Positions 5,592 through 21,539 of a stretch of 64,000 nucleotides of DNA are shown here, one piece after another. Source of the stretch: a virus (taxonomy: Duplodnaviria; Caudoviricetes); IMG/VR virus record IMGVR_UViG_3300021387_000106, positions 32,001 through 96,000 of that record. The stretch is one strand, 5' to 3'. Numbering within the stretch: the first letter of the stretch is position 1; every line of letters begins with the position of its first letter. Made by a program: the position numbers and the translations under genes. The notes below the pieces were generated by a model. That model ran no database searches and was not told the origin of the DNA. It saw only the letters and a program-made list of their open reading frames with translations.

Positions 5592-6428
5592 ATGGGATTA
5601 GTCATCAAGTCACCAAAGAAAGCGGCAGGAGAATATGCGAAGCACTCTGTAAGCATATATCGCAGATGCCCCAACCAGTGCCGATACTGCTTCCTTGACA
5701 AAGGAATCGGTAAAGGCACGTTAGGCTCTGGTAAGCCAGAGTTGCGCACTTGCTTCTATAATGTCGATGACGCAGTACAGAAGTTTGAGCGCGAACTGGT
5801 TAGGAATCGTGAGCAACTTATTGCGGACGGAGGCATATTCTTCTGCTTCATTACTGACCCCTGCCTACCCGACACCATTGAGGCAACAAAACGTTGTGCT
5901 GTTATTGCCATGAACGAAGGTGTGCCAGTCACTATCCTAACGAAGATGGCTGATTGGGTATATGAGCAGGAATATGTGGAATCCATTCTTGATACTGGCA
6001 AAGAGACTGGCTTGCTTTGCGTAGGCTTTTCACTTACTGGTCGTGATGATATGGAGCCAAACGCTTCAACAAATATTGACCGCCAAGCGGCAATGCACCT
6101 GATTCACGATATGGGTATCAAGACATTCGCCTCCATTGAGCCTATCATACAGTTCAATAAGTCTCTCGCTATGATCCGTGAGACGTTGGGCTATTGTGAC
6201 CTCTATAAGATTGGCTTGATGTCAAAATGCGGCAAAAGCTATTATGAAGTCGATGACTGCATAAAGTTCATTGAGAACGTGAATAAACTGATATGGAACG
6301 ACCAAAATTGCGCCAAGGTGTACTGGAAGGAAAGTATCAGAAAGTTCACGGACAATTATCTGAGCTTGGGCTTGCAGCCTATTTGTGTTGGCAGTGACTA
6401 CAATATCTTTGAAAGCGACTATCTATGA
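5592..6428 (+). CDS. Radical SAM protein (SplB-like phage family)
   Basis: CPNQCRYC (CX3CX2C); TDP, ILTK and ASIEP motifs. Confidence 0.85.
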   Translation: MGLVIKSPKKAAGEYAKHSVSIYRRCPNQCRYCFLDKGIGKGTLGSGKPELRTCFYNVDDAVQKFERELVRNREQLIADGGIFFCFITDPCLPDTIEATKRCAVIAMNEGVPVTILTKMADWVYEQEYVESILDTGKETGLLCVGFSLTGRDDMEPNASTNIDRQAAMHLIHDMGIKTFASIEPIIQFNKSLAMIRETLGYCDLYKIGLMSKCGKSYYEVDDCIKFIENVNKLIWNDQNCAKVYWKESIRKFTDNYLSLGLQPICVGSDYNIFESDYL

Positions 6429-15813: not shown

Positions 15814-16287
15814 TTAATGAATGAAACAATAAGCAAAGATGGTAAGCATACAAGCAACCTCAACCCAGAAAAGGTTCTTGCTTCCATCCTTTGCAGCGAG
15901 AGTGTAACCAACGTATAAGAACCAAAGCAACAGCAAATGAGGGTGGTTGAAATATACCAACATCTGCGAAGCGAGTCCTGCAACGATGGCGGCGACGTTG
16001 TGCATGGTGTTCTTTTCATTGGCAAGCAACGGAGTAGCACCAACAGCACCAATTCCTACTATTGTAAGGAAAGCGAGAAATTCAGTCATTGGAGTAGCCA
16101 AATCTAAAAGCACGGGAGCCAAAAGAGCTGCAACGGCAAACATGACAGCACTGAATATCCACTTACCAGTAGTAGGTAGAGTGAATACCGTAGAGGAAAT
16201 ACTATTAGGTATCTCCTTGGTATGGTATATCATTGCCCCCACGTAGAGAGCAATGATAACCAATGCGATTACAACTAACAGAGTCAT
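15814..16287 (-). CDS. Multi-pass membrane protein
   Basis: About 5-6 hydrophobic segments in 157 aa. Confidence 0.75.
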   Translation of the reverse strand: MTLLVVIALVIIALYVGAMIYHTKEIPNSISSTVFTLPTTGKWIFSAVMFAVAALLAPVLLDLATPMTEFLAFLTIVGIGAVGATPLLANEKNTMHNVAAIVAGLASQMLVYFNHPHLLLLWFLYVGYTLAAKDGSKNLFWVEVACMLTIFAYCFIH

Positions 16288-16290
16288 AGA

Positions 16291-16833
16291 TTATTCCTCC
16301 ACAGTTTCAGAGTTGTTGTAAGGGCTGAAATCGAAGTTGTCCTTGATAGTCCAACCTTCCTGATAGCAGGTCTCTATGTAAGCCAAGCCACCGAGATAGA
16401 ACTGAACCAGTTCCTCGAACGACTGGAAAATCTCGTAGAGAGCCTTTCCTTCTTCGTCCTCAGAAACTTTGTACTTCATGGGGAACGTTACGAGATTAGG
16501 ATATTCCTTGGCAGCATCGTGCTTTGCCTTGAAGTTTTCCTGATTCTCATTAGAGAGCCAAACCTTAACAGTCTTACCCTCGTCGTCACCATGAAGGATA
16601 GTCCACTCATAGCCATTGAGAATCTTTTCATCAGTCGTAGCGTTGATGTCGTCGATGATGGCTTTCTTGATTTCAGCAAAGTCAAGATGTGAACGCTGCT
16701 TTTTGTAAACATACACCTCAACCCACTCTGCATGAGTGTCATCAACCTCTGTAAGGTTGTAACTGATAACAATGCGGCTTGCGTCCTCTTTGAGGTAAGC
16801 AAATTCCGACTTCAAACCAAAAACCTTGTTCAT
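16291..16833 (-). CDS. Putative tail-fibre assembly chaperone
   Basis: Acidic 180 aa; VWLSxENQxNF and CYQEGWxIKD motifs; coupled to the RT stop. Confidence 0.55.
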   Translation of the reverse strand: MNKVFGLKSEFAYLKEDASRIVISYNLTEVDDTHAEWVEVYVYKKQRSHLDFAEIKKAIIDDINATTDEKILNGYEWTILHGDDEGKTVKVWLSNENQENFKAKHDAAKEYPNLVTFPMKYKVSEDEEGKALYEIFQSFEELVQFYLGGLAYIETCYQEGWTIKDNFDFSPYNNSETVEE

Positions 16834-18035
16834 AATCGTTTCTTTTTAAATTGTTTATAAAAAATGAATTTATCTGTAAACTTCGTCAGATCTTGATTGA
16901 ACACTCCTATTTTCAAAATATCTTTCTTTAGGAATAGTTTCCTGCAAAGATTGTATGATTTGGTGTGTTGGAATATACCTAAATACGAATTGATGGAACG
17001 GACAATCTTCCAAGGTTTTGAGAAATCGAACTCCAAAATCTTTTTCTTCATTCTCTCCAGTGAATGATTCGATATGTATGTTCGCCAAGGCTTGATGTAC
17101 GCTCCCAAGAACTCTGTTCCGTTGTGTACCTCCGAAATCTCCAATTTTCCTCTGTGCAATTCCAATCCTAAGTTTTCTCGAAGGAAATCTATTATTTTTG
17201 GAACTAAGCTCAGAAGCCATTCTTTGTCGGAACTCACTACTGCCGCATCGTCCACATAACGACCATAATAACGGCATTTCATTTCTCGCTTCATGAACTG
17301 GTCGAAAACATTCAGGTAAACGTTCGAGAATAACTGACTTGTCAAATTGCCTATTGGTAATCCAAGACCATCTTCCAAGTGCAGCATACTCTTTGCAGGG
17401 TCTAAACCATCCCAATCGGACTTGTCGCCACAAATGACACAATTCTCCTTGGGATTCAGCATAACGATAACTTCCGTAAGCCATATTACAAAGTCCATAT
17501 CCAAAACTTCGCCCCACGTAGTATCTTCGTATTTCGATATAGCGTGAGTTTCCATTTTTCTCAAACTTCCAATAGCTATTTCCAAAAGCCGTTTCCTCAC
17601 GATGTGCATAAAGTAGCCCCTTATATCGAGGTGCATCACATAGCACTCTCTTTGCCAGTTGTGACTTTCCTTTCTGCAAAAATCCGTAATTCTCGCTATT
17701 CCATAATGAGTACCACGATTCTTGATGCAACTGTACGTGTCCTGAATAAAAGTCCTCTCGTATAGCTGATGCGTATAGTTGAAATACAAGTGGTGTACTA
17801 TTCTGTCTCTGAACATTGCAGCGAATATCTCTCGCTTTTTGGGATAATCCACAATGAAACATTTCGATGGAAGAGGTTTGTAATTCCGCGAATACAAATC
17901 CTCGCAAAGTCCTTCCATATTCCGTTTGAGATTCTTTTCCCAAGAGACTACATAACACCTCGCACTCTTGTTTATTTTCGCATCGTAGAACGCTTGATAG
18001 AGGTCGAGTAGAAGCTGTTGCTTTGTAAGTTCCAT
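16830..18035 (-). CDS. DGR reverse transcriptase
   Basis: PKKREIFAAMFRDRIVHH, SCIKNRGTH, LDIRGYF, GLPIGNLTSQLFSNVYLN, RYVDD and FLG motifs. Confidence 0.96.
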   Translation of the reverse strand: MELTKQQLLLDLYQAFYDAKINKSARCYVVSWEKNLKRNMEGLCEDLYSRNYKPLPSKCFIVDYPKKREIFAAMFRDRIVHHLYFNYTHQLYERTFIQDTYSCIKNRGTHYGIARITDFCRKESHNWQRECYVMHLDIRGYFMHIVRKRLLEIAIGSLRKMETHAISKYEDTTWGEVLDMDFVIWLTEVIVMLNPKENCVICGDKSDWDGLDPAKSMLHLEDGLGLPIGNLTSQLFSNVYLNVFDQFMKREMKCRYYGRYVDDAAVVSSDKEWLLSLVPKIIDFLRENLGLELHRGKLEISEVHNGTEFLGAYIKPWRTYISNHSLERMKKKILEFDFSKPWKIVRSINSYLGIFQHTKSYNLCRKLFLKKDILKIGVFNQDLTKFTDKFIFYKQFKKKRL

Positions 18036-18378
18036 AAAAGAAAAGTAAAAAAAGGATGATTAGTACTGTTAGCTGAACCGGGCGCACAGCAAAACCGTTG
18101 TACCGATTGTTGTTGTTCTGCGGATTGACACCACCAGAGTTGAAGTTCAAGTTGCGAGCATTGCGCGCAGAGTTGAACGAAGCAGACCAGTAGTTGCCGT
18201 TCGAACCGCGATTGTTCCAACTCGTACCATTGCCGTTGCCACTACAAGCAAAAAAGAGTTTTCGACCACAACCTTGCACGATAGCCAAAAGGGACCAAAG
18301 GAACCATTCGGCATCTTTGATTTTTCCCGACTCTAAAAGAGTAAGGACGTGTAGCCTATGTAAATCATACTGAACCAT
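16870..18378 (-). CDS. Candidate overlapping ORF (502 aa) through TR and the -1 frame of RT
   Basis: No stop over about 389 codons of overlap with RT; ATG 34 nt after the accessory gene stop. Confidence 0.45.
   Translation of the reverse strand: MVQYDLHRLHVLTLLESGKIKDAEWFLWSLLAIVQGCGRKLFFACSGNGNGTSWNNRGSNGNYWSASFNSARNARNLNFNSGGVNPQNNNNRYNGFAVRPVQLTVLIILFLLFFYGTYKATASTRPLSSVLRCENKQECEVLCSLLGKESQTEYGRTLRGFVFAELQTSSIEMFHCGLSQKARDIRCNVQRQNSTPLVFQLYASAIREDFYSGHVQLHQESWYSLWNSENYGFLQKGKSQLAKRVLCDAPRYKGLLYAHREETAFGNSYWKFEKNGNSRYIEIRRYYVGRSFGYGLCNMAYGSYRYAESQGELCHLWRQVRLGWFRPCKEYAALGRWSWITNRQFDKSVILERLPECFRPVHEARNEMPLLWSLCGRCGSSEFRQRMASELSSKNNRFPSRKLRIGIAQRKIGDFGGTQRNRVLGSVHQALANIHIESFTGENEEKDFGVRFLKTLEDCPFHQFVFRYIPTHQIIQSLQETIPKERYFENRSVQSRSDEVYR
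18073..18259 (-). repeat. DGR template repeat (TR), 187 bp
   Basis: Aligns without gaps to 19113-19299; contains 17 AAY codons; all 17 mismatches are at TR adenines. Confidence 0.96.
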
Positions 18379-18411
18379 CCTTCATTAATTACTATTTTTT
18401 CTAATAATCTG

Positions 18412-18972
18412 TTAGAACAAAGCAATCAAACGCTTGCGAACATCACGCAAAGTATCTAACGCATCCTTGGGCGACAGCTCATCAATAGGCAACGCTATGA
18501 TGTATCTGTAAATATCCGATATGCGCATAAACTGAGGAACTTGCTGCTGAATTTCTCGTTCTTCACGTTTCTTTTTCTTGCTCTCGATAATAGGAAGTGA
18601 TTCTTTCCATTCCTCTTTCATGGCGATTAGTTCTTCAAGAGACTTCTCGTAGAAATCTGAGGGCATTGGAATAATCACGTCAACACGATTGTCATCAACT
18701 GGCAGGAACGTTACGCTACCATCATTGGGGATATACTTCTCAATTGACTTTGCAGGGAATCCCACAAATGCGTCAATTGTTTCATCTTTCATTTTCTTGG
18801 CGATAACCTTCAAAGGATTATTAACCGACTCACCAAATGGATATTTGCTCATTAACCATGCGCTCCAGTCGTGAGCGTGATAGAAGTTACCTTCCTTAAC
18901 GAAGTGAATAATGTTCCACTGAGATTGTTCCTGCCTGGAACTCTCCAAATTTATGATTTCAGATAAATTCAT
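18412..18972 (-). CDS. DGR accessory protein, MutS-N-like (MSL)
   Basis: IHFVKEGNFYHAHDWSAWLM...VGFPAKSIEKY resembles MutS domain I (GDFYE...A...GFPxxxLxxY); occupies the avd position. Confidence 0.75.
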   Translation of the reverse strand: MNLSEIINLESSRQEQSQWNIIHFVKEGNFYHAHDWSAWLMSKYPFGESVNNPLKVIAKKMKDETIDAFVGFPAKSIEKYIPNDGSVTFLPVDDNRVDVIIPMPSDFYEKSLEELIAMKEEWKESLPIIESKKKKREEREIQQQVPQFMRISDIYRYIIALPIDELSPKDALDTLRDVRKRLIALF

Positions 18973-19017
18973 CCTTATCTTTGTTTTTATTATTTTTATT
19001 TTATTTATTAACCAATT

Positions 19018-19076
19018 CCATTACGGAGGTGGTCTTAGGCCGCTTGGTGCGGCCTTTGTCCGACCACTCCGAATGG
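19018..19076. promoter_or_regulatory. Hairpin or cruciform 3' of VR (likely DGR target-recognition element)
   Basis: CCATT..CGGA.GTGGTC..AGGCCGC-TTGGT-GCGGCCT..GACCAC.TCCG.AATGG. Confidence 0.7.
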
Positions 19077-19109
19077 ATTGGGTTGTTGTTCTGATTGGCT
19101 CAGTATGAT

Positions 19110-20213
19110 TTACTGAACCGGGCGCACAGCAAAACCGTCGTACCGACGGTCGTAGTACTGCGGATTGACACCACCAGAGTAGAAGACCAAGTTGCGAGCA
19201 TTGCGCGCAGAGTAGAACGAAGCAGACCAGTAGACGCCGTACGAACCGCGACTGCCCCAACTCGTACCATTGCCGTAGCCACTACAAGCAAAAAAGAGTA
19301 AGTTACCATTAATCTTCGACTTCAAGTAGATACCAACAACACCATTCACGGTTACACGCTTGTCAGTAGTACCAGCAGCGATTACCGTAGTGCCATCAGC
19401 CTGAACGAAGTCGCAATTATCGAACAACTCTTTAAATTCTTCCGTAGTAGGCATTCGCCAAGGTGCGCCAAGATTAGCGCGTGCAGCATCCTGAGAGGGA
19501 GCCATGTTAGCGGTCAACTTGTTACCTGGTGTGTCACCATAAACTTGTCCGTCATACCAAGGCTCTTCTGCATTAACACCACCCCAATTGTAATCGAATG
19601 AAGAGGTATCTTTCGGATTGTGTCCGTCAGTGTTACCCCAAGAGAAGAATGTTTTCTCGTACTGGAAGGCACTGGCAGCGAACTTGTCAGCCTGAGTGAG
19701 GTCAATATCAGAATCAGCCCAAAGCAAGCCACTTGGCAGACCCATATCTACAAGGTGGTTAGTTGGAGTTTGGCTCTGTTCGAGACCCAACATTCCTACC
19801 ATATTCCAAGCAGAACCATCATACTGGAATTGTACGATAGTCTGAGCCTTGATAAGACCAGGCTGAACAGCTTGACCGTTTACCTTAATGGATTTTGCGC
19901 CAGTGCTATTCACGTTAAGCGTTGCTCCTGCTGCCTGATTAGCATACTTGAAGAATACGCTCACGATACCATTCTTTAGCAGAACGAAGTTGGAAATAGC
20001 GACAGTCTTTGCAATCGTTGTTGCGGCTGTTTCGCAATTACCATATCCGTTACCAGACTTCGCCATATCCTGAACCAACTGCTGTGCAGGGTATTTACCC
20101 GCAGGAGTTCCGTCAGGATTGTACAGCATGACCTCCTGAGTTGCACCAGGTGCAGCCTGAGTGAGACCCGATTGAACCGCTTTCAAAGCGTTAATCATAG
20201 AAATACTTTCCAT
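19110..20213 (-). CDS. DGR target: tail-fibre or receptor-binding protein with a C-terminal CLec-type domain
   Basis: Fibre module ATLNVNSTGAK...YDGSAW; VDMGLPSGLLWA, WRMPTTEEFKEL and YWSAS...GFAVRPV; VR at the C-terminus. Confidence 0.9.
   Translation of the reverse strand: MESISMINALKAVQSGLTQAAPGATQEVMLYNPDGTPAGKYPAQQLVQDMAKSGNGYGNCETAATTIAKTVAISNFVLLKNGIVSVFFKYANQAAGATLNVNSTGAKSIKVNGQAVQPGLIKAQTIVQFQYDGSAWNMVGMLGLEQSQTPTNHLVDMGLPSGLLWADSDIDLTQADKFAASAFQYEKTFFSWGNTDGHNPKDTSSFDYNWGGVNAEEPWYDGQVYGDTPGNKLTANMAPSQDAARANLGAPWRMPTTEEFKELFDNCDFVQADGTTVIAAGTTDKRVTVNGVVGIYLKSKINGNLLFFACSGYGNGTSWGSRGSYGVYWSASFYSARNARNLVFYSGGVNPQYYDRRYDGFAVRPVQ
19113..19299 (-). repeat. DGR variable repeat (VR)
   Basis: 13 of the 17 TR Asn codons are changed (6 Y, 2 V, 2 D, G, S, R). 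Confidence 0.96.
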
Positions 20214-20252
20214 AAATACTTATTTTTAATTAATAAAAAAACAATTTCCTTT

Positions 20253-20777
20253 TTAACCCTGAGTGACAACGTTCTTTGGCATCAGTTTGACTAATGCTTT
20301 AAACATATCATCTACGGTATAGTTGACACCATTGAAGGCGTAAGTATCAGTGGGCTTAACGGCATTAGTGGCATTGCTACGTATTGTAGCAAGGTCATTA
20401 ATAGCATCCTGCTTTGCAGAGAGAGCAGTATTAATGCTATTAACCCAATACTCAATAGATGCGTCCGTAAATATCTCCCAATCGGTATTAGCTGCACCAT
20501 TTGACACTACAAACGCTATCTTTCCGTTTACGGTATGGTAAACGAAAGCACCACTCACAATCACCATCGTACACGGCAGATTACTCGTTGCCTTTGTAGA
20601 GCGATACAACACACCGTTAATACCTACGACAGCGTTCTTGACAAACGTACTCGACGGTGTAAGCGAGTTGACATTTACAGGGTGCAGCATTTCATCAGAG
20701 AGTAAACTTTCCTTAAATTCAAGAAGTTCGCGCGCTCTGATAATTCTATTTGGGTTTGTAAGTTCAATTTCTGCCAT
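20253..20777 (-). CDS. Tail-fibre-associated protein
   Basis: N-terminus paralogous to 20868..21539; position in the fibre cluster. Confidence 0.65.
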   Translation of the reverse strand: MAEIELTNPNRIIRARELLEFKESLLSDEMLHPVNVNSLTPSSTFVKNAVVGINGVLYRSTKATSNLPCTMVIVSGAFVYHTVNGKIAFVVSNGAANTDWEIFTDASIEYWVNSINTALSAKQDAINDLATIRSNATNAVKPTDTYAFNGVNYTVDDMFKALVKLMPKNVVTQG

Positions 20778-20867
20778 AATCTCTTACTTTCTTTTAATTG
20801 TTCAACATAATCAGTTTCTTGTGTAAGGTGCGAGGGATATTGCACCCTCACACCTTAGAGAAAAAGA

Positions 20868-21539
20868 TTAATCAGAGGGGAACATTTCGGCAATGTCCTC
20901 AGAGGTGGCATAAATCACACCATCCAGCTTCTCTTTGTCAGCAGCAGAAAGCAGACCTGCCTGACCGCCAACGCCAGATGCGGAAGGAGTCGCGCTTTGC
21001 ACGGTCTTCTTGTGCGGAGTGATGACACCCTGCGCGTTCTGGCTGATGCTGTCGATGAAGGTCAGACCGCTACCATCGGCTGAAGGATCAGAAACGGCAC
21101 TCTGAACGGTCTTGTAGCCACTCAGGTCAATCTTAACCGAGTAAGCGTTGAACTTGTAAACGGTAGTACCATCGTTGTCAACGGCAACGATACCAACGTC
21201 AGTACCAGCCTTAACCGTCTCACCTGCACCATCTACCCAATCAGAAGTAGTGGTAGCATCGGTAGTCAGGTTGTAAACCTTACCGAGGTTAGCTTCAACA
21301 AGCAGAGCCGAAGTCAGCTCATCAGCAGTCTTGTTACCACCGGGCTTGTAAACAGCCGAAATCTCAGTACCAATCTTAGTGAGCAACTCTGCGAGAGCAC
21401 CCTCTACGGTTGATGCGTTAAGACCCTGAATTGTTGCAATAGCCTTGCTCTGGAGAATAGCCTCCAAGTAGCCTTTGAACTCCAAGAGTTCGTTCGCGCG
21501 AATAATGCGCTGCGGATTTGTCAGATTAATGTCTGCCAT
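20868..21539 (-). CDS. Tail-fibre-associated protein
   Basis: AGLLSAADKEKLDG fibre motif. Confidence 0.7.
   Translation of the reverse strand: MADINLTNPQRIIRANELLEFKGYLEAILQSKAIATIQGLNASTVEGALAELLTKIGTEISAVYKPGGNKTADELTSALLVEANLGKVYNLTTDATTTSDWVDGAGETVKAGTDVGIVAVDNDGTTVYKFNAYSVKIDLSGYKTVQSAVSDPSADGSGLTFIDSISQNAQGVITPHKKTVQSATPSASGVGGQAGLLSAADKEKLDGVIYATSEDIAEMFPSD

Follow-up and report, generated by a model that had tools for sequence, protein, structure and literature searches.

Diversity-generating retroelements (DGRs) produce a mutagenised cDNA from a template repeat (TR), and this cDNA replaces the variable repeat (VR) of a target gene. In the element of phage BPP-1, cDNA synthesis is primed in cis by nucleotide A56 of the spacer (Sp), with Sp47-56 paired to TR117-129 (Handa et al., 2024; bioRxiv 10.1101/2023.10.23.563531). 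Two nucleotides further on (G57-C58), Sp59-70 pairs with avd369-379 just upstream of TR; this duplex, the ‘cPRT Stop’, is predicted in 207 of 278 DGRs of the Avd type, the only type covered by that survey of DGR RNA elements (Handa et al., 2024). On the DNA side, the initiation of mutagenic homing site (IMH), whose counterpart beside TR is IMH*, was defined genetically (Guo et al., 2011; PMC3240598). Pairing between the primer and IMH has been proposed for BPP-1 as the interaction that directs integration and the direction of transfer, and cDNA synthesis in BPP-1 is independent of the target (Naorem et al., 2017; PMC5703328). According to recent work, the lagging-strand template is the strand to which the cDNA pairs (PLoS Genet 2026). 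Homing is still called poorly understood in papers from 2024-2026, and a preprint on a Bacteroides DGR (10.1101/2024.11.15.621889) mentions neither IMH nor hairpins nor RNA pairing. Here we describe a DGR in a 64,000-nucleotide stretch of phage DNA (positions 32,001 to 96,000 of IMG/VR record IMGVR_UViG_3300021387_000106; hereafter the window), in which a strand of the non-coding leader upstream of TR, termed L, is complementary to the 3′ flank of VR and follows that flank in sequence from one related locus to the next. Within the template RNA of the DGR, L is a conserved and functional strand, and probably serves as primer and guide.

The cassette is encoded on the minus strand in the order target gene, accessory gene, non-coding leader, TR, 37-nt spacer and reverse transcriptase (RT) gene (Table 1). 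A repeat search placed the two complementary arms at 18360-18377 and 19096-19113: they are 18 nt long, 718 nt apart and 94 % (17/18) complementary. Read on the minus (coding) strand, the single mismatch sets a leader U opposite a flank G, which is a G-U pair in RNA. When all 64 kb were searched with up to three mismatches allowed, only these two arm sites were returned, where shuffled sequences lead one to expect 0.09. L has a second partner in the spacer just 3′ of TR, where a divergent copy of the VR flank, 18072..18052, pairs with L imperfectly: leader 18382..18368 (AGGATGGTTCAGTAT) meets Sp 18065..18052 (TACTAATCATCCTT) in 6 bp, one G-U, 2 bp, a bulged C and 4 bp. The predicted duplex energies in the window are −29.1 kcal/mol for L with the VR flank and −19.1 kcal/mol for L with the TR flank. 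The initial annotation of this DNA had drawn attention to the inverted copy, to the pairing of 18368-18382 with 18052-18065 through one bulge and one G-U, and to the capacity of the VR flank to fold on itself; its coordinates for the inverted copy, including the 17/18 match with a G-U, all agree with the sequence, the leader-to-spacer pairing was borne out, and the small hairpin of the flank is real, with a z-score well below zero (Table 1). This hairpin overlaps the site at which L binds, so that hairpin and L pairing cannot form together.

To compare the locus with its relatives, 160 related loci were fetched from viral contigs and from metagenome-assembled genomes of Bacteroidales; their RTs are 48-81 % identical to that of the window, apart from one at 99 %. 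These relatives are DGRs of gut and rumen Bacteroidales phages. Of the 160, 111 allowed VR, the stop codon of the target, TR and the start of RT to be parsed, and from these a non-redundant set of 88 was drawn. In 72 of the 88, the region 100-230 nt upstream of TR holds a 9-18 nt complement of the VR 3′ flank of the same locus, whilst controls gave 3-5 %, and in each of the 111 parsed loci L is located at this distance on the 5′ side of TR. In nearly every locus the leader match is an exact reverse complement, and the flank sequence that it mirrors begins at or just past the stop codon of the locus's own target gene. The L-type sequences themselves vary widely by locus (for example AATATCGTTCTG, AACTTAACTTTTTCGTTC, AATTTAGGGGCG, GTAATTATTGCTGA and GAATTTACCAT), and since leader and flank diverge between loci yet stay complementary, both sides covary. 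Across the 88 loci the mean match between a flank and its cognate leader was 10.7 nt, compared with 6.4 nt for non-cognate leaders and 6.2 nt for shuffled ones, and the cognate leader took the top rank in 64. Duplex position 3 and positions 5-12 each show three to four Watson-Crick pair types, and among the cells that depart from Watson-Crick pairing there are 39 G-U, read on the coding strand, against 21 A-C. The complementarity between leader and flank is beyond chance and amounts to large-scale covariation.

The same comparison bears on a very different view of the two arms. An inverted repeat that brackets a single gene might mark an invertible DNA segment, here 18378-19095, whose flipping would reverse the accessory gene. 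In every one of the 88 loci, however, the accessory open reading frame (ORF) occupies the interval from VR to TR in an unchanged orientation, and the arms vary in sequence while their positions stay fixed, the opposite of what a recombinase site would do. An inversion, for which the initial annotation advised a check of reads, is thus contradicted both by the constant orientation of the gene and by the lack of conservation in the repeat, and we consider it to have practically no chance of being correct.

L can be expected to pair to some extent with either flank, given that the one after TR is a divergent version of the one after VR, and the question becomes which of the two L follows. Averaged over the loci, L binds the VR flank with a predicted energy of −20.2 kcal/mol and the TR flank with −13.1 kcal/mol; the VR flank is the better partner in 61 loci and the TR flank in 8 (Wilcoxon p = 2e-11). 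Among the cells in which the two flanks offer L different bases, 307 show pairing exclusively with the VR base, 88 exclusively with the TR base and 47 with neither one. The contrast is sharpest at position 1, next to the boundary, where pairing with VR only exceeds pairing with TR only by 61 to 1. These figures tell against a simpler scheme in which the TR flank would be the sole pairing partner of L, in a helix that closes the template RNA or serves as its stop, and the match to the VR flank would be a passive by-product of the homology between IMH and IMH*. Pairing of L with the TR flank is indeed above background (8.5 for cognate against 7.4 for non-cognate combinations, p = 2e-12), but a by-product should match VR less well than TR, which is the reverse of what is seen in the energies, the cells and position 1, and the place of a stop duplex beside TR is already filled by a separate covarying helix, P1, described below. 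We regard this scheme as very unlikely.

A fixed difference between the two flanks runs through the whole clade immediately past the last shared base: TR continues with C (CAG/TAG-CAC...) and VR with A (-AAC/AAT...), as seen on the TR side in most related loci, L139, L121 and L097 among them. At position 1, L consequently faces TR with a U-C mismatch and VR with a U-A pair, and the C/A difference could act as the discriminator between donor and recipient.

The L duplex adjoins the last base common to TR and VR. In 83 % of loci the C that ends L pairs with the final shared G (of CAG/TAG), and at positions 2-10 the share of paired loci is 54-82 %. Just 4 % of VRs have a change at the A of the closing CAG, compared with 30-80 % for adenines at least 26 nt upstream, and a zone free of A extends from −6 to −25. 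That this A is nearly never changed places the boundary of transfer at or before the start of the L duplex. In the window, the last 24 nt of VR (19136..19113) contain no A apart from the final CAG, an arrangement that resembles the (GC)14 element of BPP-1.

Downstream of L the leader is folded. RNAalifold and pair counts on 57 aligned leaders delineate a domain closed by P1, a helix of 7 bp between 18356-18350 and 18270-18264; 4 nt separate its 3′ strand from TR. Pairing in P1 reaches 98 %, and 6 of its 7 pairs show two-sided compensatory changes. It encloses a CGTCC-hairpin-GGGAAAAA element and helix 3 (18313-18299 with 18297-18283), a second covarying helix, and the leader structure as a whole is 90 % paired, against 65 % in shuffles and 30-52 % with slid partners. 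In the alignment L is followed by an invariant C-A (C25, A26) and then by a near-invariant xAGG, of which the GG opens P1; the order after L is C-A, UA and the 5′ strand of P1. Rfam returned no family match at E <= 1 in 16000-21000.

The priming strand of BPP-1 (PMC5703328; PMC6182149; Handa et al., 2024) has several traits in common with L. Judged by sequence in the case of L, both pair with the template directly after the base that is transferred last, both fit the VR-side IMH better than the TR-side IMH*, both end in C-A, and both are followed two nucleotides later by a duplex strand whose partner sits a few nucleotides upstream of TR. In the BPP-1 record, Sp AGGTGGTCA is the perfect complement of the VR IMH TGACCACCT, in agreement with Naorem et al. 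(2017); a comparison of the BPP-1 avd region with the VR flank gave no leader-type complement, only the known spacer primer matches. There are also clear differences. The BPP-1 primer lies in a 140-nt spacer 3′ of TR, whereas L lies about 100 nt 5′ of TR in the folded leader and the spacer here is 37 nt; the duplex of L with the target reaches 17-18 bp and runs past the stop codon, compared with 9-10 in BPP-1; and the partner protein here resembles MutS domain I where BPP-1 has Avd, in a system that we know from its sequence only. P1 takes the position of the cPRT Stop duplex, beside both primer and TR, although its two strands both lie upstream of TR, and the leader-to-spacer pairing corresponds to the template:primer duplex of BPP-1 rather than to its cPRT Stop. 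By this analogy the layout L-CA, 2 nt, P1 5′ strand, hairpins that would bind protein, P1 3′ strand, 4 nt, TR, IMH* resembles the BPP-1 RNA (avd369-379, TR, Sp47-56, G57-C58, Sp59-70) after circular permutation. Since L is 5′ of TR and not in a 3′ spacer, we class the element as a permuted variant and not as a plain member of the BPP-1 type.

The flank of VR likewise has the features by which an IMH is known: it stands at the 3′ end of VR past a GC-rich stretch without A, an imperfect copy of it follows TR, and it marks the 3′ limit of adenine mutagenesis. IMH, IMH* and a post-IMH stem-loop occur in the same order in described DGRs (Guo et al., 2011, PMC3240598; Wu et al., 2018, PMC5758913) as they do here. 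A strong fold is found at the position of the post-VR stem-loop in 65-69 of the 88 loci (median z of −5.8, against −0.09 for a control segment); in the window this nested stem-loop has no T-run, which means that it is not an intrinsic terminator, and it is probably the counterpart of the stem-loop that follows IMH in BPP-1. Unlike the genetically defined IMH, the site here can be read as ‘the complement of L’ and covaries with it, and the additional small hairpin overlaps it.

With these elements in place, the reading that we favour, to which we give a probability of about 0.6, is that L is the primer and guide strand of a permuted DGR RNA, P1 its stop duplex and the VR flank its IMH. L would first pair in cis with IMH*, and cDNA synthesis would be primed at the CAG that ends TR, with P1 acting as the stop. 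In the next step the hybrid of L RNA and cDNA would base-pair with the target's sense (top) strand, cDNA on VR and L on the flank, and the stronger pairing between L and flank would set the 5′ end of the cDNA exactly at the VR boundary, so that VR and not TR would become the recipient. L does complement the strand with which cDNA pairs, the lagging-strand template, and adjoins the expected 5′ end of the cDNA. The complementarity, its covariation and the fold of the leader are established by the sequences themselves; priming from L we infer from its position and by analogy with one studied system, and its docking on DNA we infer as well. Guide-like docking of the TR RNA or cDNA on the target, one of several roles floated in the initial annotation, finds the strongest support, both in the comparative data and in what has been published on BPP-1. 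A stronger version holds that a single 5′ leader strand is both cDNA primer and programmable guide, its complementarity alone defining IMH and hence both the integration site and the sparing of TR, such that a joint change of L and flank would retarget the element; this version we advance tentatively, at somewhat less than even odds.

Several points weigh against the assignment of L as primer and guide. The L:IMH* duplex is poor in the window where it comes nearest to the proposed priming site (C-G, two mismatches, two A-U, two mismatches), and BPP-1 requires the four pairs nearest the active site. Next to the terminal pair, position 1 regularly presents a U-C mismatch on the TR side, where it is paired in 8 % of cases clade-wide. 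To our knowledge, the closed, lariat-like topology implied by a primer that lies 5′ of its own template has been shown for no DGR. Lastly, VR lies upstream on the same strand in all related loci, so that an RNA-RNA interaction in cis, within one transcript, is possible.

The last point can be taken further. In a polycistronic transcript, the 3′ end of the target mRNA could pair with L in a long-range helix that loops out the accessory gene, either for processing (for example by RNase III) that defines the 5′ end of the template RNA, or for regulating expression of the accessory and RT genes. Target, accessory gene, TR and RT are co-oriented in 111 of 111 parsed loci, a scan of 17900-19300 for sigma-70 promoters and for terminators gave no convincing terminator between VR and L, and the G-U bias fits the pairing of two sense-strand RNAs equally well. 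A helix of only 9-18 bp is short for RNase III, however, and the scheme leaves unexplained the paralogy of IMH*, the start of the helix at the boundary of TR/VR homology, the C-A and P1 that follow L, and the preference for VR over TR; moreover, the equivalent complementarity in BPP-1 is that between primer and IMH. The looping out of the accessory gene for processing, also put forward in the initial annotation, is unsupported, the helix being short and beginning exactly at the homology boundary. Overall we think such a transcript-internal helix unlikely.

One locus, L112, has two VRs (2213-2418 and 6136-6341) and one TR, with one VR upstream and the other downstream of RT. Both VRs keep the complement of L (GGATTTGTCCTG), and their 3′ flanks are near-identical over >60 nt; as recent duplicates, these flanks do not constitute independent evidence on action in trans.

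The other scheme that makes use of the likeness of L to the target is one of target priming. L repeats the sequence of the bottom strand of the VR flank; this bottom strand, once nicked, might be the actual primer on IMH*, while L would hold its place and move to the top strand when that is displaced, in an exchange of four strands. As this requires, the flank's bottom strand is nearly identical to L, and both fit IMH* in the same register. Against it, cDNA synthesis in BPP-1 is independent of the target, and we detected no endonuclease domain, the RT matching RVT_1 only and the accessory protein resembling MutS domain I only; furthermore, if selection acted on IMH* as the shared partner, IMH* should be the best complement of both strands, and it is the worst. 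These points make target priming quite unlikely, and priming by L itself remains the reading that we prefer.

Table 1. Features of the DGR cassette in the window (coordinates are those of the window).
Feature	Position	Strand	Remarks
502-codon ORF	16870..18378	-	starts at ATG 18378-18376, inside L
DGR reverse transcriptase, 401 aa	16830..18035	-	Pfam RVT_1, 3.8e-10; PHROG 1423 reverse transcriptase, 1e-82
TR-RT spacer	18036..18072	-	first ~21 nt (18072..18052) IMH*-like; U-rich tract next
TR	18073..18259	-	begins 4 nt past the P1 3′ strand; 37 nt between its end and the RT start codon
Folded leader domain, roughly 90 nt	18264..18356	-	RNAalifold and pair counts, 57 sequences
Leader strand L (AAGGATGGTTCAGTATGATTTAC)	18360..18382	-	proposed primer/guide strand; C18360 and the next A18359 invariant
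Accessory gene, 186 aa	18412..18972	-	MutS-domain-I-like, not Avd; between VR and TR
Long nested GC-rich stem-loop	19012..19081	-	−29.5 kcal/mol, z = −7.3; ~30 nt past the target stop
IMH-like VR 3′ flank	19096..19113	-	last VR base, TAA stop and 14 nt more; complement of L
Small VR-flank hairpin (GGTTCAGTA-AATCA-TACTGAGCC)	19097..19119	-	9 bp, 5-nt loop; DNA minimum free energy −5.8 kcal/mol, z = −3.5
DGR target gene, 367 aa	19110..20213	-	ORF with C-terminal variable region; TAA stop 19112-19110
VR	19113..19299	-	198-nt direct repeat with TR, 89 % identity

The source record is a complete 109.8-kb phage genome with direct terminal repeats, of which the window is a part, and the genome contains a single VR only. 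The element is a DGR: the RT lies beside TR, the differences between TR and VR are biased to adenine, and diversification of VR is ongoing. Of the TR/VR mismatches in the window, 18 of 22 are at TR adenines, and more than 100 relatives show the same bias. Comparison of the window over 4 kb with L003, a phage of 99 % identity found in a different sample, gave 43 differences, of which 22 were located in the 198-nt VR and one in TR; from this it follows that the DGR is active in nature. Residues 208-366 of the target protein gave weak, sub-threshold Pfam matches to Fib_succ_major and Lcl_C. A blastn search in distant mode with the cassette returned zero matches from the phage collection.

The accessory protein is acidic (isoelectric point about 5.5) and carries the motif FYRAYEWSAW. 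An AlphaFold model built from a 46-sequence alignment has a pLDDT of 84.9, and the best Foldseek matches of its N-terminal ~80 residues are to the N-terminal domain I of MutS, with a probability of up to 0.98 and a root-mean-square deviation of 1.8-2.7 Å over 55-80 columns, at E-values of just 0.05-0.4. Pfam gave sub-threshold matches only (E = 0.07-0.22, with MutS_I at E = 0.22), PHROG gave none, and sequence and profile searches of the PDB stayed at chance level (E = 0.3-0.7). Neither Pfam nor the comparison of folds gave a match to Avd. On this weak evidence from sequence and fold, the protein appears to be MutS-domain-I-like, which fits the ‘MSL’ class of Wu et al. (2018; PMC5758913). DGRs that lack avd are known (Wu et al., 2018), and the missing Avd is therefore compatible with membership of the DGRs.

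The ATG of a 502-codon ORF lies inside L, at 18378-18376, as had been pointed out in the initial annotation. Its frame, which is that of VR, takes in the leader and TR, and continues over the full length of the RT gene in frame +2. Gating of the translation of this overlapping ORF, another role floated in the initial annotation, is a possibility. The frame is free of stops in 12 loci of two distant subclades (the window, L005, L006, L072, L083, L007, L084, L009, L008, L001, L078 and L079), where shuffles of synonymous codons lead one to expect 15-30 stops (p < 0.0005 each), and RT is the sole long gene in the window with a stop-free second frame (z = −7.1). We therefore reject the view that the ORF is spurious, as the frame is kept open by selection in some lineages. 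The synonymous sites of RT are, however, no more conserved in the stop-free loci than in the others, so that only stops seem to be avoided and particular residues are not kept; a conserved protein is accordingly unsupported, and Pfam and PHROG gave no family match to the 502-aa product. L003 has one T fewer in the U-rich run of the spacer (18036-18053), which brings the TR frame into frame with RT and creates a potential leader-TR-RT fusion ORF. This difference could be due to slippage, phase variation or an assembly error.

In conclusion, we have described a DGR leader strand whose partner in the target flank changes with it across the DGRs of gut and rumen Bacteroidales phages. Complementarity between leader and target flank was initially thought to be undescribed, but the principle had already been proposed for BPP-1 (Naorem et al., 2017; PMC5703328): a primer that matches IMH better than IMH* was known as a hypothesis for one element, and pairing across TR was known as well. 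Relative to the literature searched, what is new is the 5′ placement of the strand in a permuted RNA, its context of a MutS-like, non-Avd protein, and the breadth of the covariation. For the way in which mutagenised DGR cDNA reaches VR and takes its place there is a sole mechanistic proposal, the pairing of primer with IMH, which rested on one sequence comparison in one phage. The covarying partners and the preference for target over template are as that proposal predicts and not as the alternative roles predict, and lend it comparative support. They also suggest that the template RNA can be assembled in permuted order around an accessory protein other than Avd. If the reading of L as primer and guide is true, IMH becomes a designable sequence, which would be relevant to the reprogramming of DGRs as tools for targeted mutagenesis.

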